A stretch of DNA of 64,000 nt from IMG/VR virus record IMGVR_UViG_3300014073_000001; one strand, written 5' to 3'. The notes under the pieces were generated by a model. It searched no databases, had not been told where the DNA came from, and saw nothing but the letters and a program-made list of their open reading frames with translations. The stretch comes from an uncultured virus (IMG/VR IMGVR_UViG_3300014073_000001) (Duplodnaviria; Heunggongvirae; Uroviricota; Caudoviricetes). Below are positions 9,959 to 61,082 of this stretch, piece by piece. Numbering within the stretch: position 1 is the stretch's first letter; each line of letters starts with the position of its first letter. The translations under genes and the position numbers were made by a program.

Positions 9959-10567
9959 ATGCAACACAACTCTAACCTTGCCGTGGCCAATTTTATACCG
10001 ATGGTAATTGAGGCAAGCGAACGTGGCGAGCGCGCATTTGATATATTTTCCATGCTATTACGCCAACGAATCATTTATCTCAATACCCAGATAAATGATT
10101 CAATGGCTGGTCTAATTATTGCGCAGTTATTATATTTAGAGGCTGAAGACCCTAAAGCCGATATCACGCTTTATATCAACAGTCCGGGTGGAGAAATTTT
10201 GTCCGGACTGGGAATCTATGACACAATGAATTACATAAAGCCCGATGTCTCAACTATCTGCGTTGGCAAAGCATGCTCGATGGGATCATTCCTACTTGCA
10301 GGCGGTACCAAAAGGAAGCGTTTTGCGCTACCTAATGCCGAAGTGATGATTCACCAGCCAAGTGGCGGTGCCCAGGGCCAGTGCTCTGATATCCAGATCG
10401 CTGCCGCTCATATTCAAGCTTTGAAAAATAAGCTAACTGGCCTGTATGTGGATATGACCGGACAATCTTTAGAAATTATCCAAAGAGATACAGATCGAGA
10501 TCGATGGCTCTCAGCTGAAGCGGCGAAAGAATACGGCCTTATCGATGAGGTTCTATACAGAAGATAG
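9959..10567 (+). CDS. clpP: ATP-dependent Clp protease proteolytic subunit
   Basis: YINSPGG, catalytic Ser in [10 protein letters not shown], His in MIHQP, DRD; SD AAGGAGG. Confidence 0.97.
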
Positions 10568-10584
10568 TAGGAGGTGTCGGCTTT

Positions 10585-11853
10585 ATGAACAAAAACCAAT
10601 TTGCTCAAGTTGAGCAAACATGCACATTTTGTAATAGGGAAGCAGATCCGGATAACAGCAGAATTCTGATTCAAAGTTTGGACGGCAAGTCTTCTATTTG
10701 TACAGAGTGCATTAAAGACTGTGCAATCATAGCAGCGCAGTACAAACCCAAGGCTGAAATCCTGACGTTGCTAACCGACGACTTTAAGCCTTCAACCGTA
10801 CGCAACTATCTTGAACAATACATAATTAATCAAGATCGCGCTAAAATGACCTTAGCAGTTGCAATTTATGATCATTATAAATATCTTACATACAAATCGC
10901 AGGCGAACTCGCCTATAGAAATTGAAAAATCAAATATTTTACTGGTCGGCCCCACTGGTAGCGGTAAAACAGCATTCGCCCGTCAGTTAGCCAAGATTCT
11001 TGATGTCCCTTTTGCTATGGCAGACGCTACAAATTTAACGCAAGCGGGATATGTTGGCGAGGACGTTGAAAACGTCATCCGATTGTTGGTGGAAAATGCT
11101 GACGGCAACATTGAAAAAGCAGAGCGTGGCATCATCTACATAGACGAAATCGATAAGCTATCCCGTAAAAGTGAGAACCTATCAATTACTCGCGATGTTG
11201 GCGGTGAAGGTGTACAACAGGCACTTCTCAAGATCATCGAAGGTTCTATTGTCGAGATTATCGAGAAAGGTCAACGAAAGCATCCGACTGCCCAGACCGC
11301 TAAGGTAAATACTGCCAACATTCTATTCATCGTAGGTGGTTCATTTGAAGGAATCGAGAAGCACATTGCTAAGCGCCAAAAAGCAAGCAAATCCCGATTA
11401 GGTTTCGGCAATGCCATCGCCCAAGAAGAAAAATCATTTAATAACTTAATCAATGATATCAAAGTTGAAGACCTGAAGAAATTCGGCATGTTGCCTGAAT
11501 TATTAGGCCGCCTCCCAATCTTATGTCCGCTGCAAGAGCTGGATGAAACAGCGCTGTTAAAGATACTGACTGAGCCTAAGAATGCTTTGGTAAAACAATT
11601 CCAGGAGTTGATGAGAATCGATAACGTTGAATTGGAATTTACCGAAGATGCACTTAAAGCGATCGCCAAAAAAGCAATTGAGAGAAAAACCGGGGCTCGT
11701 GCACTGCGTTCCATCTTGGAAGACACCATGCTGATACATAAGTACATGATCCCAGAATTAGAGAACGTAAGCAAAGCAATAATCACAGATCAGTGCGTCA
11801 ATAACGGTGCAGAACCAATCTACGAATACTCAGACAAAAAGAAACTTGCTTAA
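10585..11853 (+). CDS. clpX: ATP-dependent Clp protease ATP-binding subunit
   Basis: C4 zinc finger CTFC...CTEC, Walker [17 protein letters not shown], Walker [12 protein letters not shown] and LGF loops, TGARALRSI. Confidence 0.97.
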
Positions 11854-26091: not shown

Positions 26092-27132
26092 TTGGAAGTA
26101 ACGGTTCCTGAAGTGATTTATACAACATCCACCGATTTGGAAACAGTTCATGATGCTCTGCAAAATGTCAAAGCCGGATCGTCACACGATTATAATGCGT
26201 TTGACTTTAACAAGGCCGACAAGCAAGCGTTCATAAATAAGCTGGCCCAATTCTTACGTCTCTCTACCGCTCACGGTCGACCATCAGATGACACGATGAA
26301 TTCCTATGTGTCTCACATTAAGGAATTCGGTCGGTGGTGTTTTGATAAAGGCATAGATCCATTCACCGCATTCCCCCGTCATATCATCGGATATCGTGGT
26401 TATTTATATGAAGTCAAAAACAGATCATCTCGCACCGTGTCCGCTAAACTGTCGGCCGTACGTCGCTTCTATGAATCTGCATTGCATCATGAGTTGATAC
26501 AAAAAAACCCAGCTGCAGACATATTTGCTGAAACCAAGGATGATGACGATTTCGGTACACGATTTTTAACAGCTGGACATCTTGAATATCTTTTCCGAAT
26601 CATACCGAACGAAGGAGAAGAGAACTTACGAGCTAAAGCCATGATCGCTCTCATGGGCCTGGAAGGTCTCCGCCGCGTTGAGATCCACCGTGCGAATGAA
26701 GAAGACATGGATTGGCAGCATGGAATACTTATAGTGCACGGTAAAGGTAAGCGCCGGAGGGCTTACCCAAGGGAAGATACCTTGGTGATCTTGAAGCGAT
26801 ACCTCGATGTACGTTACGCTATTAGGAATGATAATGGTCAAACGCCTATGTTCACTTCGGTCTCCAATAACAGCCGTGGCAGGCGCTTACACCGAGACGG
26901 TGTTCATGACAACATAAAAAAATGGTTTAGTAAGGCGGGCATTGATTCGGATTTGAGCTGCCACTTATTACGCCATACGGCCGGTGCGCTTCTTTATCAG
27001 GAGACGAAGGATCTTCGCGCAGTACAAGAGACACTGGGACATGCTGATCCAAAGACGACGGCAAAGTATGCTCATATCCAGGACCGCATGGTTAATCGCT
27101 ACACGAAAGCAATACCGGTAAAGATATTGTGA
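26092..27132 (+). CDS. Tyrosine recombinase (XerC/D-like resolvase/integrase)
   Basis: SAM-like N-domain; catalytic R (GLRRVE), K (HGKG), HLLRH, LGHAD and Y (TAKYAH). Confidence 0.95.
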   Translation: MEVTVPEVIYTTSTDLETVHDALQNVKAGSSHDYNAFDFNKADKQAFINKLAQFLRLSTAHGRPSDDTMNSYVSHIKEFGRWCFDKGIDPFTAFPRHIIGYRGYLYEVKNRSSRTVSAKLSAVRRFYESALHHELIQKNPAADIFAETKDDDDFGTRFLTAGHLEYLFRIIPNEGEENLRAKAMIALMGLEGLRRVEIHRANEEDMDWQHGILIVHGKGKRRRAYPREDTLVILKRYLDVRYAIRNDNGQTPMFTSVSNNSRGRRLHRDGVHDNIKKWFSKAGIDSDLSCHLLRHTAGALLYQETKDLRAVQETLGHADPKTTAKYAHIQDRMVNRYTKAIPVKIL

Positions 27133-41602: not shown

Positions 41603-42490
41603 TTAACAATGGTCAAGACAATTCTTACATACATCGGGTATGATGTCTCGAGATTGTTCAGATCTCATTTTCATGCCTTTGCCGAAGCGTAGCAATTCCA
41701 AGACCGGCTTGTCTTTCAGATTGCCAATAATATGCTCTTTACTGTGCCCATAGCAACAGGTGCGTACATTAAGATCGACATCTACATAAAACCCTTTGAA
41801 TAGAGACCAGCACGGGACTGGTGATACTTTGTTTTCATACTCCCCTATTACGCCGGCCACTCCGGTTGCATATGTTCCGCCCTGTGATTGAAGTGGCAGC
41901 CAGTAATGATCACCAAACTCTAATTGGGATAAAGCTTCTTTGTAGTCGTCTTTGTCGGAATCAAGTATGGTTGATACAGTTAATGTTTTACCAAGCCGCT
42001 GACATTCTTCGTTCAATACTTTAATGTTCTTAATGATTATGCCATATATCCATTCACTAGCCGCTGTTTTAGATACGAAGTCATTCTGATCTTTGTAATT
42101 CCACGAAACTTTTAGGCTGTCAATATACGGGATAGCATTTAATATGTTGCTTTGGGTCGTTCCATTAGTAGTAAGGTAAGTAAAGAACCCGCTTTCTTTC
42201 AGTTCTTTATAGTATTTGGCCAGTTGGGGGTGCGTGCCCGACTCGCCCATATAGAACAAGCCTACTTCTTTGATAGTTCCTATCATCTTCAGCGCGTATA
42301 GAACGATAGCAAAATCATTATCATTCATAAACTTCTGACGTTCGCCATACTCTGCCATTTGCTTGTTATAGCAAAAGGCGCAGTTTAGTGTACAGATTCC
42401 AGTCAGTTCTATCTTCGCTGTTGTGTATGGAGTACCAGACAATAGATTGTCGTTCCTTGAAATTGCATTGACTCGATCTTTCACTGACAT
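41603..42490 (-). CDS. Radical SAM/SPASM(Twitch)-domain protein
   Basis: CTLNCAFC, MGES, TTNG; C-terminal PCW...VRTCC...IGN...CKNC. Confidence 0.9.
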   Translation of the reverse strand: MSVKDRVNAISRNDNLLSGTPYTTAKIELTGICTLNCAFCYNKQMAEYGERQKFMNDNDFAIVLYALKMIGTIKEVGLFYMGESGTHPQLAKYYKELKESGFFTYLTTNGTTQSNILNAIPYIDSLKVSWNYKDQNDFVSKTAASEWIYGIIIKNIKVLNEECQRLGKTLTVSTILDSDKDDYKEALSQLEFGDHYWLPLQSQGGTYATGVAGVIGEYENKVSPVPCWSLFKGFYVDVDLNVRTCCYGHSKEHIIGNLKDKPVLELLRFGKGMKMRSEQSRDIIPDVCKNCLDHC

Positions 42491-42502
42491 GTTTGTGCCT
42501 CC

Positions 42503-43312
42503 TCAATACCTGAAAGCTTTTCTGTCAACTCTACAAAAATCTACTTCGGATATCACGAAATGTTTGTGTGGCACCGGCAATTCTTTTGCTTTGACAGTTA
42601 AATAAACAGGATGTTCTGAAACAACTTCATACGGTATATTACCGACTGATACAGCGTTATTGCATAAGCCTTTTGTATTAATTAGCCATTTGCAGGCGGC
42701 CGGCGAAATGTACTGCTCTCTTAAAAGCTGAAAGCGTCGCCTCCATTTGTCAGTAAATAAGCAGTAGCCGAGCCTCAGCCCCGCCCCTATGGTCTTGCTA
42801 AATGAGCCGATAACAACTTTGTTGTCGTTGATATCCTTTACGTTAGCAAGTAGTTGACACTGGGTGTAGGTTTCATCTAAAATTTTAACACCGTCAAAGG
42901 AAATGTTCTCGTGCCTAAATAGATTGTTATAGGTATCTGTCATATATAGAAACTCGGTATCGATGCTTTTGACTTCTGGAGCAAAGATGCCGTCTTTAAA
43001 TTCATAGTTATGAAAGTTATAGGCGATGTCCAACGCTTCGCAATCTATCTGAACCATTTCCCATGTCGGATTCTCTATCGTAAGTTCCTTAACTCGTAAG
43101 GCCAAGAGAGCTATCTTCATAGCATTCTCACAGCCGTTAGTTAGAATGAAGTTGCCGATGGGGATATGAAATAACTTGCTAAAGCTTTCGTATGCTCGGT
43201 ACATATCTGGGTACTGTCTAGCATTAAAGGCAAAGATATTGCTTTCGCCTGGTTCGTTCTTGGTTGATAATGGACCATCTATTGATGGCTTGTAATCTTT
43301 TCTTTCAAACAT
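42503..43312 (-). CDS. PLP-dependent class I/II aminotransferase-fold enzyme (HisC/CobD-like, short)
   Basis: QYP, TNGCE, ILDETY, GSFSKTIGAGLRLGY (PLP lysine motif). Confidence 0.8.
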   Translation of the reverse strand: MFERKDYKPSIDGPLSTKNEPGESNIFAFNARQYPDMYRAYESFSKLFHIPIGNFILTNGCENAMKIALLALRVKELTIENPTWEMVQIDCEALDIAYNFHNYEFKDGIFAPEVKSIDTEFLYMTDTYNNLFRHENISFDGVKILDETYTQCQLLANVKDINDNKVVIGSFSKTIGAGLRLGYCLFTDKWRRRFQLLREQYISPAACKWLINTKGLCNNAVSVGNIPYEVVSEHPVYLTVKAKELPVPHKHFVISEVDFCRVDRKAFRY

Positions 43313-46440: not shown

Positions 46441-47335
46441 TTCTATACCACCTTATTAAAGATTTCATGCCGCAGCATTCGTCGCCATCTCTCCATGGTT
46501 TAATGTGTTCAGCATAGCAGTGCCCATAGAATTCACATGTCCGACATAGCTCTTCGTACTCCTGCGCTTCTCTGTTGCATTCCCTCGCCCAATCTTCTAA
46601 ACTATCAAAGCTCTGAAAATATTCAAGCCCGTTGTCATAATGAATACAACAGTATTGGTTGTACGGATTTATAAACAGCACCGAATCCATAGAAGGGTTG
46701 TACATATTGTATATTACCTCTTCAATCTCGATTATGTTGTTTATCAGGAAATTATATTTGCTAGAATTATATTCGATGATAATAGCTTTAAGAAAGCTAC
46801 TATACTCTTCATTCGTAATCGCATAGTTCACCCGAGCATGTACGGCAGGAGAGTATTGGAGAAATCCTACGTTTAAATTAAACAAGCTCAGGTGACGCAA
46901 TATCTCTCTCGGTGGCTTTTTAAGAAGTGATGGCGTCACGACCTGAATCAGTGACAGGCTTTTATATTCATTGATTAACAGTCTAAACTCGGTCAGAGCG
47001 TTGCAGTCTCTCTCTTCATTAATAGAAGTTGACAGATCAATACCCTGTGTTTTGAAATAGTCGTTATAGACTTTATTGGAATAATTTGTAACGATCGATA
47101 CCGACGCGTATGTTCTGCAAATATTGTAGAGCTCCATAATATAGCTCAACGGCAGCAAGGTGATCTCGCCGCCGTACAGGTTGATAATGTCTATTATATT
47201 ATGGCGCGCAATCTCTGCTAGTTGCTCTTTTAGCTTCGGTAAATTTAGTATTTGCGAATCGCTTTTGAGGTCGCCCAGATAGCAATACTCACAATCGTAG
47301 TTACATGTATAGTTTGTCATGATATGAAGAATCAT
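46412..47335 (-). CDS. Radical SAM protein with Cys-rich C-terminus
   Basis: CNYDCEYCYLG, LYGGEI, VTN; CRTCEFYGHCYAEH...CCG. Confidence 0.92.
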   Translation of the reverse strand: MILHIMTNYTCNYDCEYCYLGDLKSDSQILNLPKLKEQLAEIARHNIIDIINLYGGEITLLPLSYIMELYNICRTYASVSIVTNYSNKVYNDYFKTQGIDLSTSINEERDCNALTEFRLLINEYKSLSLIQVVTPSLLKKPPREILRHLSLFNLNVGFLQYSPAVHARVNYAITNEEYSSFLKAIIIEYNSSKYNFLINNIIEIEEVIYNMYNPSMDSVLFINPYNQYCCIHYDNGLEYFQSFDSLEDWARECNREAQEYEELCRTCEFYGHCYAEHIKPWRDGDECCGMKSLIRWYRNEKGVHQNN

Positions 47336-48270
47336 ATAAAGACCTCCCCTGACCGGTGACAAATGGTACCTTCCAGTTTGTTGTCTAAATGGCAGCGCCT
47401 TAAGTTGATCATAATATCACTATTCCATATTTCTTTAAAAGAGTTCTTTCTTAAATCTCCTACGATGAAGTCATCAATAAATGCACTACAGCAGCTTGCT
47501 ACTTTCATATCACTTGTTATGTAGCTATTATTAAAAATACGCGGGCAAGGCACGACAGGCAGTCGGTTACAGTAATCACTACTGAAGTGCCCATCCTTTA
47601 TAAGCCCGCCCTGATTGTTAATATTAAAGAAATAGTGTTCACTCACATATGGTTTAACGTGTGCATCAACAAATGATTGCATTTTGATCGGTACGTTTTC
47701 TACATCGTATACGGTAGATGAGGCATACAAACTAATCGATGAATCAGATCGATATGCATACTCTGCAGTCTTTTTAATATTATCTATTACAATATCAAAT
47801 GCGTCGACGCCGGTCTCCTTAAGAAATTCGTCTCGATCCGCATGATTAATGGACCATTTTAAACTGTCTAGGCCTGAATTTACAATGTCTCTCATCAGCT
47901 GTTTTTTTAACAGTACGCCGTTAGTCGTGAGAAATAGATAAGGTACCCCCAAGCCCTTTGCAACCTTAATCATCTCTACAAGGTTGGGATTCATAGTTGA
48001 TTCACCTAGAAATAGCAGCCCGACCTCTTTAACACGGAGGTCAACCAATTGCTGTATAATATTTTGAAAGTCTTCCAACGACATGAATCCTTTTCGTTCA
48101 CTATGCTGATTGTAGCAGAAGGAGCATTTAAGGTTGCACATAGAAGCCAGTTCTACCTTAACGGACTTCGGCGTAGGACAAATGAGAGAGTAATTCTCGA
48201 TTTTTTCTATCGCTTTAATTCTTTCTCTGATCCCGTCAGCTTGGTCCCGATCACGATTGATGCTTTTCAT
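47332..48270 (-). CDS. Radical SAM/SPASM(Twitch)-domain protein
   Basis: VELASMCNLKCSFC, LGES, TTNG; PCP...ASCC...VGDL...EIWNS...IC; paralogous in style to 41603..42490. Confidence 0.9.
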   Translation of the reverse strand: MKSINRDRDQADGIRERIKAIEKIENYSLICPTPKSVKVELASMCNLKCSFCYNQHSERKGFMSLEDFQNIIQQLVDLRVKEVGLLFLGESTMNPNLVEMIKVAKGLGVPYLFLTTNGVLLKKQLMRDIVNSGLDSLKWSINHADRDEFLKETGVDAFDIVIDNIKKTAEYAYRSDSSISLYASSTVYDVENVPIKMQSFVDAHVKPYVSEHYFFNINNQGGLIKDGHFSSDYCNRLPVVPCPRIFNNSYITSDMKVASCCSAFIDDFIVGDLRKNSFKEIWNSDIMINLRRCHLDNKLEGTICHRSGEVFI

Positions 48271-49081
48271 AGTAATCACTCCAGAAGTTTTTGAATTCCT
48301 CACCATATAAATTACCAGGAGAATCACACTTACTACACAGTTTGCATAATTCACGCCGATCACCAATCAAATGCATACGGTCTTCTTTAAGCCTATTAAT
48401 CCAGATCTCATAAATGTCATCTGTAAAGATATTGCCTAGTATGTGTTCGCGGCTCCAGTCGCTACAGCATTGTAGTATATCACCGTTAATGTCGATCGTT
48501 ATTTTCATGAAGCAAATATTGCAACAAGACGACGGGATATGCACGTCCGACTTTCCGACATTGCCAGCTCGGTTATTCCAGAACGTGTTGTTCTCTTTAT
48601 ACTGGGTTTTGAACTGTAGAGGCGACTTCGTATTTAAGTCCTTAATCTTCAGTTCGGCAGACTCATCGTATAATGATACATCGATATTATCGACTTCAAG
48701 ATCGACAAGGCGGCCATGAAAGTCACCATTGGTTGTTAACAGCACCCGGGCCTTATCGCATTCCTTCAATTTATAAATAAGCTCTTGCAGATAAGGATGA
48801 AGCGCTGGCTCTCCAAAGCCCGACAGAGAGAATGTACCCTGGAATTTATTCCTTAGCTGTTCCACTAATTTGGCGATCACCTTTATGTCCATAAATTGTG
48901 ACAGGTAAGATGGAGAAGTGTAGCCATTGCCACGAGGACAAAAGCTACACTTACGATTACATGCTTCGCTTATATTGATGATGATCGTATGGAGACTGGT
49001 GAAAACATCGAGGTCATGCGTCTTTAAGTATTTACCGATTGCATCTGACTTTGTCTGAATATTGGTAGCCCTCAAATTCAT
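48251..49081 (-). CDS. Radical SAM/SPASM(Twitch)-domain protein
   Basis: CNRKCSFCP, SGFGEP, TTNG, NNRAGN; C...F...ING...CC.DW...LGNI...EIW...CSKC. Confidence 0.9.
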   Translation of the reverse strand: MNLRATNIQTKSDAIGKYLKTHDLDVFTSLHTIIINISEACNRKCSFCPRGNGYTSPSYLSQFMDIKVIAKLVEQLRNKFQGTFSLSGFGEPALHPYLQELIYKLKECDKARVLLTTNGDFHGRLVDLEVDNIDVSLYDESAELKIKDLNTKSPLQFKTQYKENNTFWNNRAGNVGKSDVHIPSSCCNICFMKITIDINGDILQCCSDWSREHILGNIFTDDIYEIWINRLKEDRMHLIGDRRELCKLCSKCDSPGNLYGEEFKNFWSDYYEKHQS

Positions 49082-49089
49082 TTCTCCCC

Positions 49090-49977
49090 CTAGAATGAAA
49101 AATATGGTGCACAAATTTCGTTAATCAGAGTTTTGTCTGGATTTACTTTATTAATTAGCTTTTCGAAGTAGTTGATATTCTCACTGGTAACATAGAGGCA
49201 AGCTGGGATATACGGCAATTGTAAATATAGAGCAGACAGAATACGTGCGTGCGAATCATTAGTCGATACAATTGTGCCATTGTCGATTTCCAGATACAGA
49301 GGTTTTTGAATTCCGTTCTTAGCGATATCTGTAATTAGCGCATCCATCTCATCTTTGTCGGAGCCGGTAAACCAGAAGTCTTTGCTGATAACATCATAGC
49401 AGTAATTGTAGTCAGCCAGCTGGACCGTGGAATAATACTCATACGGTAAGTTTACATTAAGAATATAGATCGGTGCTTTACAGATATCTTTGTTGTCGAC
49501 AATAGTATAACTTGTAGAATCAAACATACTGTATTTACTGCTATTTGGAACCTTACAGAAATAACTTGGCATATTTGATACCGGCTGAAGCTTAGTTCTT
49601 AAAAATTCCGGAATTGATTCGGCGTACTCAATACCATATACATTCATGACAATATCGGTATCATTCATTTTAATATGCTTCAAGTAGTCTTCACTGGCCA
49701 TTGCTAGGCCGAATGAACCGAAGTATTCGAGCAGGCCATAAGCGTCAGTGATTCTAGAATAGTCCTGGCTTTTACCAATCTTCGGGATCTTCTTGAACTG
49801 AAGCTGCAGGTGCGCTGGCAAAAGTTTGATAATCTCTTTTCTATCAGCTACATCAATCGTTACTGTCTGCTTTGAGCGCAGATGCTGTTGCAGATCCCCG
49901 TAACCAGTTACTTCATAATCTTTTATGATAAGCTGAGGTTTTTTGTTCAGCCTATCCATTACTTCCATGCTCTCCAT
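49090..49977 (-). CDS. Hypothetical protein with C-terminal ParB/Srx-like segment
   Basis: LITDIAKNGIQKPL...NDSHARILSALYLQLPYIP resembles the ParB/sulfiredoxin core (G...P...DG.HR..A). Confidence 0.5.
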   Translation of the reverse strand: MESMEVMDRLNKKPQLIIKDYEVTGYGDLQQHLRSKQTVTIDVADRKEIIKLLPAHLQLQFKKIPKIGKSQDYSRITDAYGLLEYFGSFGLAMASEDYLKHIKMNDTDIVMNVYGIEYAESIPEFLRTKLQPVSNMPSYFCKVPNSSKYSMFDSTSYTIVDNKDICKAPIYILNVNLPYEYYSTVQLADYNYCYDVISKDFWFTGSDKDEMDALITDIAKNGIQKPLYLEIDNGTIVSTNDSHARILSALYLQLPYIPACLYVTSENINYFEKLINKVNPDKTLINEICAPYFSF

Positions 49978-51694: not shown

Positions 51695-52829
51695 GTATCT
51701 TGCTCCATTCTAAATACGTATTTACAAAGTGCCGATTCTCATTGATATAATTGAAAGTTTGGCTGAGCGGACACTGCGTAGTTTTATACCCCTCGAATAC
51801 GATTGCTACCCAGCACATCATCGGGCAGTATTGGTAATGCTCACATGTCAAGCAGCCACGCTTTAAGAGCCCTAATGAGTTCTTGATCTCTGTAACGTTA
51901 TCTTCTATCACGTTCTTGTGATATTCGCCATAAAACATTTCGGCTGGTAGAGATGATGCACGCTTGGAACAGTCTTTGATACATTCTCCGTTGTGGAACT
52001 GACTTGCATATTTGCAGTCGCAATATCTGCCCATGAACGGGCGAAGCTCTTTAAGGGAGCATTTTATGAAATTCCCAACAGCAAGCACGTTGAAGTGACT
52101 ATTATCGATACACCACTTGAAAAAACTAAAATACTCCTCATCGGTAGGTACGTGTTTTTCCCATCCCGGGTTTGCAGTGTAATAGTTGATATCCACTGTA
52201 ATATCTTTCGGGATCAGGTTGAATGCTCGGTCGCCTTTTATATACGCCTTAATGGTATTCTTTGTTAAGGTAATTGAGATATATTGTGTAATCTCTTTGA
52301 AGTGGCAAAGCGTCTTCAGCCATATTTCTTTTTGGCTTTCACAAGAGAAGCGATCCACTGGATCATAACTGAATGCGATCTTGCCGTTTGTTCTCACCAG
52401 AAGCTTTTCAACTCGCTCGTATTTGGTGAATACACCATTGGAAAGCCAAGTCGTTTCTACTTTAATTCCAGGAATCTCTCGGCCAGCAATCTCAACAAAT
52501 TTATCATAAAATTCGACATATATATCAAAGAGGGAATCTGGTAAAGCATCGAAGAACAGCTCCCCACCCCATAAGCGGAGTAAAATCGTATCTACTCCGT
52601 ATTCTTTGACCTCATCCTTAATGCCGTCTATGATTAACTTAGGCATCGCCAGGATCTTGCTGGTGTCGATATCATTGCACTCATGAGATTCAAAGCAGAA
52701 GCTGCAGCTCAAGTTGCATCGTTCGAATAGCGGAGCTGCAATTTCAAAGTAGCCAGGATTTTTATAGAAATTGATCTTCGGCAGTGTGGAAGGCATTTCA
52801 ACTCTGGAAATATCGATAAATTTTTCCAC
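51669..52829 (-). CDS. Radical SAM/SPASM protein
   Basis: FERCNLSCSFC, LWGGE, WLSNG; CLTCEHYQYCPMMC...C; start overlaps the stop of the CHxxCHxxCH gene. Confidence 0.92.
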   Translation of the reverse strand: MEKFIDISRVEMPSTLPKINFYKNPGYFEIAAPLFERCNLSCSFCFESHECNDIDTSKILAMPKLIIDGIKDEVKEYGVDTILLRLWGGELFFDALPDSLFDIYVEFYDKFVEIAGREIPGIKVETTWLSNGVFTKYERVEKLLVRTNGKIAFSYDPVDRFSCESQKEIWLKTLCHFKEITQYISITLTKNTIKAYIKGDRAFNLIPKDITVDINYYTANPGWEKHVPTDEEYFSFFKWCIDNSHFNVLAVGNFIKCSLKELRPFMGRYCDCKYASQFHNGECIKDCSKRASSLPAEMFYGEYHKNVIEDNVTEIKNSLGLLKRGCLTCEHYQYCPMMCWVAIVFEGYKTTQCPLSQTFNYINENRHFVNTYLEWSKIHDKDITPI

Positions 52830-53506
52830 TATCTACGACCTCGACTTCCGTGACAATTATTATGACAATTACGATGGCAAGTATATAACTTATATGTAAT
52901 TGCATTTACCGATGCTGAAGTCCATGCCGCTTTCAAGCGATTGAAGAAGGCTACGATATTGGCTGCTGACGCTGCCTTTCCTGCCTGAATATCTGATCCG
53001 TCAACATTGATAGCTTGCAGGGGGATATTTACGTCACGTTCCCATCCAGCCACTGCCGAACTGCCTATTGCTGAATATACCGGCAAAGCAGCGAGTGAAG
53101 GCTTGAATATTGCCTTACCACTTTTGGTTGCAACTAAGGAAAACGAGGCATTGTTTTGATGATACCAATAAGAATTAAAGTTACGAACTCTGGATAGTCC
53201 TGTTACTATGCTAGTCAGTGCGGTGTACACAGTTGCTCCAGTCACTCTTTCACCTGCTGTTCCTATGTTTGCAATCGGTTCAGCGTAAGCATCGAGATCT
53301 TGAAGAGGGACTGCCGCAGGATCAGCAAACGCGGCGACGTTGTCATTTCCTTGGTAACTAGAATTGCGATATACTGTGCCGCTAAAATATGGCACGTTCG
53401 TACTATGAAAAGTGTTTGCCAAAATAGTCGCTACAACATTAGCTGAAAAACTAATAGCCATATCACCTGGTTTAATTTTGTCGCCAGCAATTAAGCTCAT
53501 CACCAT
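52829..53506 (-). CDS. Fibre-like protein with C-terminal CHRNCHNNCHGSRGRR; putative rSAM substrate
   Basis: Ala/Ser/Asn-rich; three G-x2-[IVA]-x-[APG] repeats; all Cys are confined to the C-terminal triple CH motif; first gene of the rSAM cluster. Confidence 0.65.
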   Translation of the reverse strand: MVMSLIAGDKIKPGDMAISFSANVVATILANTFHSTNVPYFSGTVYRNSSYQGNDNVAAFADPAAVPLQDLDAYAEPIANIGTAGERVTGATVYTALTSIVTGLSRVRNFNSYWYHQNNASFSLVATKSGKAIFKPSLAALPVYSAIGSSAVAGWERDVNIPLQAINVDGSDIQAGKAASAANIVAFFNRLKAAWTSASVNAITYKLYTCHRNCHNNCHGSRGRR

Positions 53507-58037: not shown

Positions 58038-61000
58038 TTACATGATGTACATATACGCTTCGCCTTGCGGGTCACGTACGACAATCAATTCTGCATCGAG
58101 AGTAGCTTTCTTTTCCCAAAACATAACGGAGCATTCACTGTCAAGCTGGGTCTCATCCGGATAACCGATGATCTCGATTTCGGAGTCAAGTAATTCCGAC
58201 CAGATGTTGTTTGCCAAGATCTCGATGTCAATCTCAAGATCGCAAGTTGCCGATCCTGCCATCGCAATGTCGATGAAGCAAGGGAGAGCTGTCTCGTTAG
58301 GAGCAGCAATCGTAATCTCACTATCGAGATTTGCGTTCGGGTTGACGAAGACTTCGCTGTCGAGATCGTTCCAGTAACCGTTCGGTAAGGTTCTATAATA
58401 TTGGACTTCCAACCGTGGAACTTTGAAGCCTTCCCTCGAGGAGAAATAGATGCCTTTCTTGGTAGCCTGCAGCGGGTTCTCTACAACCAACATGAAGGAC
58501 TGTCTGTCACTCTTATGTGCCCAGTCAATGAAGCCCGCAGTGATGTCGATGGCAATGTCGCCCATCTTCTTCGGCGCTATGAGTTCGGCTACCTGTTCGT
58601 AAACAGGGAGTGAATCCAGTGCACGGTAGTTTACTTTGGTTTCAAACCAGCTATCGCTGATGCGGTAGACTTTGATTATTACGTCATCCTCTACCATAGG
58701 GCGAGTAACATATAACTTCAAGATTACTTTCTGAATCGTCTCGTAACCAAAGTAATTCATAGCATCGGTATGAGGAATGCTCAGTTCAGCTAGGTTGAAT
58801 CCGATCAGTCCCTTAAAAGTTTCGCCGCCGGTGAACCTACCCACAGAAAGCTCGGGAAGGGTGCCATAGTTAGTGAGTGCAGTATAGCTGTAGCATACAG
58901 CGTCTTTGATGGCTGTAGTCGTACCCGTTCTCAAGACTGCCGGCATAGTATAGGCTGATATTCCCATGACCGTCTTGTCGTTTTCGTAAACAACATAGAT
59001 CTCAGAATCAAGATCGGCATTTACTGCAATGGCGATTTCAGAGTCAAGGTCAGCATATATATCGTTGCGATAGAATACCGCAGTCTCCATTCGATTGGTG
59101 GCATTAACCATCATTGCACAATCTATCGAGGATTCAGCAATGAATGCTACGCATATTTCAGAATCCACGTCGTATTGTCCGCCGCCTAAAAGGTCGGTCA
59201 CAGCTTCCAGGGATGTTCCACTAGTGATACTAATTTCGGAGTCGAGGTCGGATATGTCGAGGTGAGTTACCATCATCTCACTGTCAAGATCGCCTCTCTC
59301 AACGTGGAGCAAGTCAACTACGGCTTCCATTACGGCACCGCTTGTTACGTTGATCTCGCTGTCAATATCGCTGACGCAAGTAATAACAACATTTAGTTCG
59401 CAATCTATTTCAGTTCTATACGATCCATGGGTGTCATAGATGACTTCCATCATGGTGCCGGAAACGATCATCAGCTCTACATCGATGCAGCTTTCATCAA
59501 TTTGGCAAATATTGATTGCAGCGTCGATATCGTTATTGCCACCGCTCTTACTATCAGTGATAACTTCCATTCCATTCGATGATGTAACTGAAAGTTCAGT
59601 GTCAAGCTCGGACGAGCCTGCGCCGACTACAGTCATTTCAGAACTTAGATCTTTACGAGCACCTGATTTAACATCGACCACAGCTTCCATACCGGTATGA
59701 GCTTGTACGTTAATCTCTGAATCAATCTGAACTGATTCGCAAGCAGTAACTGCTATCTCGGTATTCAGGTCGAATGCTGCTTCTGTCATCGTATTTACGA
59801 CGGCTTCCATCTCTTGTACTCTTGGGACAACTATTAGTTCAGTGCCCATATCAAAGCTGCTGGCATAAGTGATCATTAATTCATTGCCGATGTAGCTATT
59901 GCCAGATACCTGAGTGTCCGCCATAGCTTCCATTATACTCGTGCTGAAGATGCTTATTTCGGCATCTATTTCGGAAGCTACCTGGATTGCGACAACCATC
60001 TCAACCGGTATTGCCATCACGACATTGCTCTTAAGTATTTCAATTTCAGAGTCCAGTTCATTGACACCGAGCGCGGCTGCCGTTACTTCAGCGTCGATCG
60101 AACTATCTTCTATTTTGCTAATAAGTATTTCTGTATCTAAAAGCCGTTTCCAGTAAGTGCCGTAAGCATAAACTATGATTTTGGAATCAATATCTGATAC
60201 CGCTGTCCGTTGAATATTAATGACTGAGTCTAAATCCTTACGATCTGTTTGCTGGACTAAGATTTCCGAATCGATGCTGCTGTGGTTATAAACCCATATC
60301 TCCGAATCGAGGTTGCAGCCATCTAAGAACCATACAAATATTTCGGCGTCGATTTCTGTTTCACAGTCGTACTTAATGGTGAGCTCGCTGTCCAGATCTT
60401 CTTGGCAATCATATTTTACAGTAAGCTCGCTGGCAATATCGGTAGTGGCCGAAATCCAAATTTCGCTATCGATGTCAGTTTCGGCAATGTTCCAGACGAA
60501 CATCTCGCTCGGCATATCGCTTTCGCGCTCAACAGCCACGATGAGTTCGCCATCGATTTCACTGCCGTCTGAGATCGCGATTGTTATGTCACAATCGATT
60601 TCTTCAAGTATGGCACTGTTAATATCTATTTCACACCAAAAGCCATCGTCCTCGCCAAACATAAAATCTATGTTCTCAGGAAGGTTCGAGACATCTCGGC
60701 CGTTGACGTAATAGACTTTCCCGTCAATAATATCAACTTCAATTTTGCGCCACACTTCCCAGACATTATACAGCATCAGATAGTGTCCGTCCGTATACGA
60801 ACCAGGGATCGTCGCAGTAGTCGCACCACCACTCATACTCGACTTGAGATCCGTTGGAAAATCGTCTGGGTACAGAGGATTGTCGTATACGTTTTTCCAG
60901 TATCCTGGTGGCGAGAACAAATACGCTTCTGAAGCTCTATGCGGGAAAGGTTCTGCGAATATGATTTCCGCGCCATTACCCGTTCCGTGTTGGTTTATAC

Positions 61001-61082
61001 CGACCACATTCATCGTGGTGTTGCCGGCAAAGCCGAGCAGCATCTCTTTGTATGCAGTGTACTGAAGGCTAAGCGCCACCAT
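58038..61082 (-). CDS. Acidic-repeat protein with DNRLRE-like domain (C-terminal part of a frameshifted gene)
   Basis: Dozens of D[LI]D[SA]E[IL]x[VI] repeats; D...S...TNYG...L.VG...LKLYV...W.E..V...DIT...FSSRE...PRLEV domain. Confidence 0.65.
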   Translation of the reverse strand: MVALSLQYTAYKEMLLGFAGNTTMNVVGINQHGTGNGAEIIFAEPFPHRASEAYLFSPPGYWKNVYDNPLYPDDFPTDLKSSMSGGATTATIPGSYTDGHYLMLYNVWEVWRKIEVDIIDGKVYYVNGRDVSNLPENIDFMFGEDDGFWCEIDINSAILEEIDCDITIAISDGSEIDGELIVAVERESDMPSEMFVWNIAETDIDSEIWISATTDIASELTVKYDCQEDLDSELTIKYDCETEIDAEIFVWFLDGCNLDSEIWVYNHSSIDSEILVQQTDRKDLDSVINIQRTAVSDIDSKIIVYAYGTYWKRLLDTEILISKIEDSSIDAEVTAAALGVNELDSEIEILKSNVVMAIPVEMVVAIQVASEIDAEISIFSTSIMEAMADTQVSGNSYIGNELMITYASSFDMGTELIVVPRVQEMEAVVNTMTEAAFDLNTEIAVTACESVQIDSEINVQAHTGMEAVVDVKSGARKDLSSEMTVVGAGSSELDTELSVTSSNGMEVITDSKSGGNNDIDAAINICQIDESCIDVELMIVSGTMMEVIYDTHGSYRTEIDCELNVVITCVSDIDSEINVTSGAVMEAVVDLLHVERGDLDSEMMVTHLDISDLDSEISITSGTSLEAVTDLLGGGQYDVDSEICVAFIAESSIDCAMMVNATNRMETAVFYRNDIYADLDSEIAIAVNADLDSEIYVVYENDKTVMGISAYTMPAVLRTGTTTAIKDAVCYSYTALTNYGTLPELSVGRFTGGETFKGLIGFNLAELSIPHTDAMNYFGYETIQKVILKLYVTRPMVEDDVIIKVYRISDSWFETKVNYRALDSLPVYEQVAELIAPKKMGDIAIDITAGFIDWAHKSDRQSFMLVVENPLQATKKGIYFSSREGFKVPRLEVQYYRTLPNGYWNDLDSEVFVNPNANLDSEITIAAPNETALPCFIDIAMAGSATCDLEIDIEILANNIWSELLDSEIEIIGYPDETQLDSECSVMFWEKKATLDAELIVVRDPQGEAYMYIM

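Follow-up and report, generated by a model that had tools for sequence, protein, structure and literature searches.

We analysed a stretch of 64,000 nucleotides (the window) from the 154,403-base IMG/VR record IMGVR_UViG_3300014073_000001, which is classed as a virus. Within it, a protein here called S ends in a short Cys-His repeat and is followed on the same strand by eight radical S-adenosylmethionine (SAM) genes with a CX3CX2C motif, a gene for a pyridoxal phosphate (PLP)-type enzyme, and genes for small proteins (Table 1). We propose, with the odds evenly poised, that S is a virion structural protein whose unstructured repeat is cross-linked by the neighbouring radical SAM enzymes, mostly from a His ring to the beta-carbon of the Ser or Asn two residues on.

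Positions 52829-52885 encode, on the minus strand, YTCHRNCHNNCHGSRGRR and then a stop codon. An earlier note on this DNA had read here a C-terminal Cys at every fourth residue, each followed by His, and the translation bears this out: Cys occurs in the open reading frame (ORF) at residues 210, 214 and 218 only, with His directly after each, in one H-x-S and two H-x-N units. Among ORFs of at least 25 residues, in the window and in the whole record, the patterns CHxxCH and CxxxCxxxC matched S only, and the chance expectation for CHxxCHxxCH in the record's 45,135 residues, computed post hoc, is about 1e-7. The Cys-free body described in the same note holds for the window copy of S, but not as a family trait, as 81 of 161 distinct homologues are without Cys outside their last 25 residues. 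The true start of S is probably Met3 (ATG at 53500, giving 223 residues), because an alignment of 130 homologues shows Met3 almost without exception, the database copy of S has 223 residues, and a Shine-Dalgarno-like site is better spaced from this second ATG. The stop codon of S overlaps the GTG start of the group A radical SAM gene.

Table 1. S and the cassette genes of the window, in order along the cassette, with the gene upstream of S and an ORF seen in bacterial loci (locus labels L are our own; aa, amino acids).
Feature	Position	Strand	Remarks
Tail-fibre-like gene, 309 aa	53517..54446	-	immediately upstream of S; assignment weak (tail fibre, phrog_4465, E 8.7e-4)
Tailed protein S	52829..53506	-	225-aa ORF; predicted folded alpha/beta body (residues 1-209) and unstructured Cys-His tail
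S core	52829..52879	-	Cys210-Ser221 as three C-H-x-[N/S] units, followed by R-G-R-R and the stop
Radical SAM group A, 386 aa	51669..52829	-	CX3CX2C and C-terminal Cys cluster; start overlaps S stop
Partner protein p, 238 aa	50978..51694	-	phrog_20767; most constant neighbour of S
Three ORFs, 90, 250 and 295 aa	49090..50997	-	no family match, no relative in fetched loci; cassette membership uncertain
Accessory radical SAM/SPASM-twitch enzyme F, 287 aa	48251..49114	-	relatives in 5 fetched loci
Accessory radical SAM/SPASM-twitch enzyme G, 344 aa	47332..48366	-	relatives in 5 fetched loci
Radical SAM group D, 316 aa	46412..47362	-	
Radical SAM group B, 336 aa	45430..46440	-	SPASM-like; nearest anSME, DynA, ChlB and PapB, far below cut-off
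Small conserved cassette protein q, 130 aa	45060..45452	-	phrog_20737
Radical SAM group C, 325 aa	44096..45073	-	
Radical SAM E, 267 aa	43305..44108	-	short B-related paralogue; closest relatives within same phage lineage
PLP-aminotransferase-like accessory, 269 aa	42503..43312	-	Pfam PF00155, E 1.1e-5, residues 155-207; relatives in 6 fetched loci
Accessory radical SAM/SPASM-twitch enzyme H, 295 aa	41603..42490	-	
Twin-arginine-like ORF (bacterial genomes)	L008:14471-14869, L017:5894-6244, L019, L024, L033, L034, L040		

Conservation of the tail in the S family

A sequence search with S found 14 proteins, the query included, and a profile search extended the family to 637 representatives at E <= 0.001, the best 150 of them listed. 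The homologues do not vary freely at the Cys and His positions: a strict CHxxCHxxCH was present in 132 of 161 distinct homologues. The first Cys of the tail is invariant across 130 aligned sequences; the second is conserved in 98% and the third in 93%. In 134 homologues the top residue had a mean frequency of 0.79 across the tail but of 0.31 across the body; this set was chosen by length and by an RR ending from searches that included the tail. As a control, loci were fetched by enzyme C alone (best 80 of 376) and scored with a profile of the S body only, and the repeat was present in all 23 distinct body-only matches; this control is partly dependent, as tailed proteins supplied the bodies for the profile and there is some overlap with earlier contigs. 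An R-x-R-R ending occurs in 148 of the 161 homologues, although we rejected it as an invariant feature, since its frequency is partly a selection effect and it is absent from 9 of the 23 body-only matches.

No Pfam or NCBIfam family was found for S (only four single stray matches in 130 members), and the one PHROGs match, phrog_35144, covered its last 27 residues. Neither S nor p had a relative among solved sequences or a usable match in the ESM Atlas. Longer or fused forms of the S body were absent from 3452 candidates, which is weak evidence, and a locus search of viral contigs with the single S sequence gave no matches. With tblastn, weak tail or C-terminal matches were obtained in 12 phage records, which comprise Atu_ph07, Phosso and RSL2-like phages and contain the same cassette in the neighbourhood of the match. 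S belongs to an unnamed family that is spread over unrelated large phages and some predatory bacteria.

Several departures from the typical S were observed. One sub-family ends right after the third unit, with no R-x-R-R (L183-L185, L191, L196, L207 and L208); it seems to be without enzymes A and D and has a 570-residue cluster, one scanned member of which is a B12-binding radical SAM protein. Tails ending in Gly-Trp and in Gly-Gly-Arg-Arg were seen in L204 and L181, respectively. Phages such as L021, L031, L051, L084, L119 and L229 encode two tandem short S paralogues (125-140 residues) with the same tail, bodies that cluster apart, and up to five extra radical SAM paralogues. Seven homologues (P0114, P0130, P0131, P0136, P0138, P0154 and P0156) have longer C-H-x-[S/N/D] arrays, C-Y-K or C-Y-S-D ends, or an extra domain after the repeat.

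Linkage of S to radical SAM enzymes

Loci were found with a degenerate DNA pattern of the tail, which gave at least 123 viral loci (about 300 estimated, with flanks for 80) and 47 genome matches, 39 in the protein frame and 8 that were dropped (4 checked by translation). After removal of four duplicates, 118 loci were mapped; 72 of them, including the window and the cultured phages, had at least 5 kb upstream and at least 8 kb downstream and were counted, and the other 46 were dropped. A radical SAM gene was present in every one of the 72 well-flanked loci. Group B was found in 63 loci, groups A and C in 60 each, and group D in 53, with all four together in 48, while p occurred in 69, q in 35 and a fibre-like gene in 37. 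Cupins were present in 40 loci and other oxygenase-like genes in 42, both labels reflecting our reading of cluster sequences. The earlier note had tied the tail to the adjacent 386-residue radical SAM enzyme; that enzyme does adjoin S, but in the family as a whole S is accompanied by four radical SAM groups and by p, and group A is not the most constant radical SAM group across loci. In a reverse search from enzyme C, S was recovered from the fetched DNA, which reached about 10 kb upstream, in 23 of 52 loci. Seven more enzyme-C records were searched whole; S was present in 5 of them, and the two misses were fragments (23% and 32% complete).

Among the 39 in-frame genome matches, 27 bear names that we take to be those of Bdellovibrionota taxa, and in a sample of this group 6 of 201 genomes matched, one being the centre genome. 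In three Bdellovibrionota loci (L008, L014 and L040) the cassette lies beside S74-chaperone fibre genes, and four of five S74 matches have an N-methyl pilin-type start; the link to attachment fibres therefore recurs outside phages. The S74 genes with this start can be read as pilin-anchored fibres. In addition, an ORF of 100-132 residues with a twin-arginine-like start was seen in 7 of 38 genome loci, all Bdellovibrionota (Table 1), and might help to export S, which itself has no evident signal peptide.

Pattern of the repeat unit

Of 148 tails that were parsed, 107 had exactly three CHxx units (C-x-x-[S/N], period 4) and 41 were variants; unit number ranged from 2 to 5 across homologues, with shifts in register. 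The ring position of 444 aromatic-X2-X3 units from proteins was occupied by His (418), Tyr (19) or Trp (7), and X3 by Ser (273), Asn (128), Ala (15) or Asp (11) in 427 of them. A second set was taken from 167 distinct tails found with a DNA pattern that leaves X2 and X3 free, and here Ser, Asn, Ala or Asp stood at X3 in 495 of 501 units (Ser 423, Asn 44, Ala 26, Asp 2), the rest being Gln (3), Arg (2) and Lys (1), with no Thr. Gly was never found at X3 in the 945 units of both sets, yet it stands at X2 in 77 protein units and 92 locus units; a further 75 locus units have Thr at X2. This constrained fourth position of the unit (S/N/A/D, never Gly) had been missed by the earlier note. Sixteen Cys-less units were parsed, one of them an artefact; the remaining 15, in 12 proteins, have His, Tyr or Trp as the ring, end in S, N, D, A or Q, include all seven Trp units, and often have a period of 3 instead of 4.

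The repeat unit is better read as C-[H/Y]-x-[S/N/A/D]. A role of X3 as an acceptor would fit the exclusion of Gly, which is without a beta-carbon. What defines a triceptide is that, within an aromatic-X2-X3 motif, the aromatic residue is joined to a beta-carbon (PMC11499958), the ring residues being His, Tyr, Trp or Phe (PMC11002830, PMC11499958) and the acceptors Arg, Asn, Asp, Ser and Ala (PMC11002830) or Lys (PMC11499958); a His-x-Ser ring has been documented (PMC12912966). The unit pattern matches these cyclophane motifs better than a metal site, and the fixed multi-metal His site considered in the earlier note is disfavoured by His-to-Tyr swaps, Trp triplets, and varying unit number and spacing. 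Attachment of c-type haem at CX3CH was also considered and rejected, as no signal peptide is evident by eye and both His-to-Tyr changes and Cys losses occur, with no search made for maturation genes.

Predicted structure of S and virion association of a homologue

AlphaFold2, with 130 sequences, predicted S with a predicted local distance difference test score (pLDDT) of 92 and a predicted template modelling score of 0.87, as three helices and a long beta-hairpin. Body residues mostly had pLDDT values above 90, and the tail was unstructured (pLDDT 56-60). No PDB fold matched S: Foldseek gave no match at E <= 0.001, and among 48,161 chains the best VIA Z was 3.2, with none at or above 5. The features of an elongated beta fibre are absent from this model, which is a compact alpha/beta domain, so the fibre-like body proposed earlier is not upheld; its G-x-x-I-x-A motif occurs in one copy (residue 170), and at least one copy arose in 726 of 5000 shuffles of the body, which is chance level. 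The broader suggestion of a folded structural domain with a short, strongly conserved C-terminal core beside radical SAM genes is supported.

The top match to S in a library of viral models was gp170, a 296-residue protein of phage Atu_ph07 (E 1.3e-5), whose computed mass of 31.89 kDa equals its entry in Table S5 of PMC6102473. According to that source, gp170 is part of the Atu_ph07 virion proteome (8 peptides, 35% coverage) and was most abundant in gel band 1, where proteins of 87-139 kDa likewise peak (PMC6102473, Table S5); the table does not specify whether the C-terminal peptide is one of the 8. Among the 37 proteins of 25-40 kDa listed there from gp57 onward, bands 7-8 hold the peak of 20 and band 1 that of 3. 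The neighbouring gp164-169, gp171 and gp172, cassette enzymes among them, are absent from the same table (PMC6102473). The gp170 data speak for particle association and a resistant high-mass form, not for a type of bond, and the peak in the top band hints at a stable or covalent oligomer.

Similarity of the cassette enzymes to characterised families

None of the cassette enzymes of the window reached an NCBIfam cut-off. Among solved sequences, group B was nearest to anSME (E 2.5e-12) and ChlB (E 3.8e-12), with the 5WGG/5WHY sequence at E 3e-10, group C was nearest to anSME, group D to the YydG epimerase in its N-terminal part, and group A had one weak match. Family models matched the 27 group B members in a similarly mixed way (DynA 27, anSME 25, DarE 23, PapB 23 and YhhB 23). 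Models of three-residue cyclophane-forming enzymes (XyeB, GrrM/OscB, FxsB, YhhB and AmcB) scored the window enzymes at 29 bits or less against cut-offs of 310-450, and the best E value for such a model among the 27 group B members was 8e-14, on YhhB. Scores were likewise far from the cut-off for the PapB model on enzyme B (24 bits, cut-off 340), TIGR04463 at its best on enzyme D (20 bits, cut-off 525), TIGR04115 on group B (22 bits, cut-off 350), and the HxsC model on enzyme E (22 bits, cut-off 268); the HxsB model weakly matched 15 of the 27 group B members. The Hxs models had no match in 130 S members, and p had no NCBIfam match at all. The CX3CX2C motif lies at positions 12-38 in groups A-D, which leaves no room for an N-terminal RiPP recognition element (RRE; RiPP, ribosomally synthesised and post-translationally modified peptide). 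The cassette enzymes are thus SPASM relatives that modify peptides or proteins and fall into no named family, and similarity does not determine which reaction they catalyse.

Proposed maturation of S and alternative explanations

The gene order suggests that S and the enzymes would be made from one operon in the host cytoplasm, where p, which is linked to S across loci, and the S body may present the tail. We consider it highly likely that the tail is the substrate of the cassette. A SPASM-type enzyme, with group B as the best candidate, would abstract a beta-hydrogen from Asn213, Asn217 and Ser221, and the resulting carbons would be coupled to His211, His215 and His219 as triceptide-type cyclophanes. 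The remaining enzymes could add changes at Cys or Arg, and conceivably links between subunits. Mature S would then be built into the virion close to the tail fibres, in the form of a stable oligomer, its folded body retained as a structural part and not cut away as a leader, and might bind the host surface or stiffen the fibre apparatus. That S stays in the particle is likely. For the main link, we see a roughly equal balance between a His ring joined to a beta-carbon and the other options taken together, namely a Cys thioether, other chemistry, or both kinds of link. The chemistry is a prediction for every member of the family. More tentatively, and with the chances somewhat against it, a four-enzyme assembly line in unrelated large phages and predatory bacteria may make a polycyclic, His- and Cys-cross-linked tip that could stitch subunits together covalently.

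Several observations weigh against His-ring cross-linking of a virion protein. Enzyme similarity picks out no chemistry, with group B as close to anSME, the PapB model matched in 23 of 27 members, and all scores far below cut-offs. Virion support comes from one distant homologue in a preparation purified with polyethylene glycol, and the loading buffer as listed has no reductant, so that material in the top band may be disulfide-linked or aggregated (PMC6102473). Five homologues (P0005, P0009, P0031, P0038 and P0044) have a Cys-x-x-x unit without an aromatic residue. In P0030 and P0087 the Trp occupies the Cys register, where a simple exchange of Cys for Trp could account for it. Cyclophane formation alone gives no reason for the invariance of Cys210 in 130 aligned sequences, and the absence of Gly from X3 would suit a Cys-to-X3 thioether equally well. 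Finally, the units are related by descent, and their counts are not independent events.

In an alternative scheme, the same cassette makes Cys thioethers as the main links (Cys sulfur to the Ser or Asn beta-carbon at i+3, or the i,i+4 pattern of the earlier note) and His serves in recognition or as a later metal ligand. The near-invariance of all three Cys, the retention of Cys in the five homologues in which the aromatic residue is lost, and the resemblance of group B to PapB and to the 5WGG/5WHY sequence are in its favour, as is CrpC, whose protein substrate has C-X-X-Q/D repeats and receives ranthionines (PMC13692751). We nevertheless regard this scheme as rather unlikely, as the 15 Cys-less units in 12 proteins keep the aromatic-x-small pattern, often as the period changes from 4 to 3, and His-to-Tyr swaps are hard to account for without the ring as the reacting group. 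Chemistry that forms no ring (Ser or Cys to formylglycine, epimerisation, hydroxylation or amination) would fit the proximity of groups B and C to anSME and of D to YydG, the oxygenases and cupins in many loci, the PLP-type enzyme in the window, and an unexplained +8 Da change on the H-x-S motif of HxsA (PMC13128918). The similarities concerned are weak or N-terminal only, however, and Asn at X3 cannot yield formylglycine; as the sole modification such chemistry is improbable, although it may well occur in addition to cross-links.

Two further explanations dispense with cross-linking of a retained tail, and we give little weight to either. Three Cys-His pairs are good metal ligands, and the tail could be an unmodified metal site, for example for Zn at an oligomer interface or fibre tip, with the enzymes acting on DNA or a metabolite. 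The migration of gp170 as a high-mass species is consistent with this, and DNA modification has been proposed as the role of a three-gene phage radical SAM module (PMC11437467). A fixed ligand geometry does not agree, however, with the Tyr and Trp variants, the shifting register and the range of 2 to 5 units, and a metal site accounts neither for the lack of Gly at X3 nor for a radical SAM gene in all 72 loci, on phage and bacterial chromosome alike. Alternatively, S could be a RiPP precursor with an oversized leader, from which a modified 16-residue core is freed as an antibacterial, anti-superinfection or signalling peptide. A C-terminal core, a basic end, several maturases and often oxygenases make up a RiPP layout, and characterised triceptides are released by proteolysis (PMC12912966). 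There is a slim chance of this, given that the S body is a conserved fold, that a homologue was found in virions, and that no protease or exporter stood out in 45 recurrent neighbour clusters, judged by cluster and with no dedicated search.

Relationship to known systems

The proposed cross-linking of S resembles triceptide systems (HaaB, HtkB, YhhB, OscB, XncB, MicB and ChlB) in its tandem aromatic-X2-X3 units and SPASM-type neighbours. In contrast to these, the S carrier is a folded, probable virion protein of 200 residues and not a short precursor, Cys normally stands before each unit, there are at least four enzyme groups with none at a triceptide-synthase cut-off, and the cross-link is predicted. 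The HXS system (HxsA/B/C/D; PMC13128918) shares a folded protein of about 200 residues, basic His-x-Ser repeats, more than one radical SAM enzyme, a small partner, and, through HxsA, action at the interface of phage and host envelope. However, HxsA is a bacterial, exported and N-terminally processed defence effector with a peptidoglycan-binding domain (PMC13128918), whereas S matches no Hxs model of NCBIfam, has a C-terminal repeat with Cys, and is phage-encoded. CrpA/CrpC of Methanococcus voltae (TIGR04463) is similar in that a radical SAM/SPASM enzyme forms cross-links at C-terminal Cys repeats, C-X-X-Q/D, of a protein-sized substrate (PMC13692751). It differs in having one enzyme with an RRE, an archaeal origin, and 17-residue repeats with no His pattern (PMC13692751); the window enzymes are without an extra N-terminal domain ahead of CX3CX2C. 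SCIFF peptides and other ranthipeptides (CteB, PapB) and CXXX-repeat targets (TIGR04114/TIGR04115) have Cys at every fourth residue and SPASM enzymes, as S does. Those targets are short peptides or long CXXX arrays, and no SCIFF- or CXXX-type model matched any of 130 S members.

Phages Cumys and phiMa of Thermus also carry a radical SAM gene with partners of unclear function, termed the 'rSAM module' (PMC11437467). That module has three genes with DUF483 and a proposed role in DNA modification, unlike the cassette, and no Cys-His tailed protein is described in the accessible part of the paper (PMC11437467). Ophion (bioRxiv 2025.09.30.679545), as far as its accessible part goes, is unrelated. 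Cassette enzymes are given as accessory or of no assigned role in one phage paper (PMC11898562), radical SAM genes of related jumbo phages have no function assigned in another (PMC5468394), and a term search did not find 'radical' in a jumbo-phage overview (PMC7824862). Literature searches, in which subscription journals were thinly covered, found no description of the cassette or its substrate. Short peptides are established targets of radical SAM cross-linking, and a few cellular proteins (CrpA, HxsA) have recently been added to them; the searches turned up no virion protein among the reported targets.

The window version of the cassette and its surroundings

No cupin or oxygenase-like gene lies in the window version of the cassette or, within the fetched DNA, in L037, L065, L073 and L083. 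With its three twitch-type enzymes and PLP-type protein, the window version may be an oxygen-free variant suited to an anaerobic host. The three twitch-type radical SAM genes (41603-43312 and 47332-49114 regions) and the PLP-type gene are common to 5-6 related phage loci, and the set was seen to travel together in L176-L178, L180 and L204; it is possibly an oxygen-free oxidation-amination module. The 295-residue ORF (49090-49977) has, by eye, a ParB/sulfiredoxin-like motif near its C-terminus. Upstream of S, the 309-residue gene scored 33.5 bits to the fibre-like family seen near S in other loci, and pairwise BLAST with gp176 of Atu_ph07 was not significant (E 0.72).

Other genes of the window encode ParA, a weak ParB match, a tyrosine integrase, an SNF2 helicase and an M23 peptidase. 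ParA with the weak ParB match, ClpP- and ClpX-like ORFs recognised by eye, and the tyrosine integrase, in the regions 361-2203, 9959-11853 and 26092-27132, suggest a large temperate or plasmid-like phage. Its host is likely a member of the Firmicutes, because of the gene content and the Bacilli label of L037, the locus that best matches S. A 1014-residue acidic repeat protein with a DNRLRE/CBM96 domain is encoded at 58038-61082, in a structural region.

Implications

Cultured Atu_ph07 and Sinorhizobium phage Phosso carry the cassette, and cross-linking of S is therefore directly testable. If it takes place, it would account for the radical SAM and oxygenase clusters left without a function in jumbo phage papers (e.g. 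PMC11898562), four uncharacterised enzyme groups would gain a defined 16-residue substrate, and phage particles would seem to bear chemical modifications that standard proteomics misses. The more tentative four-enzyme assembly line would, in addition, make natural-product chemistry a part of the attachment apparatus, with a RiPP-like ligand on a virus particle, a new fold as its carrier, and several new radical SAM reactions.

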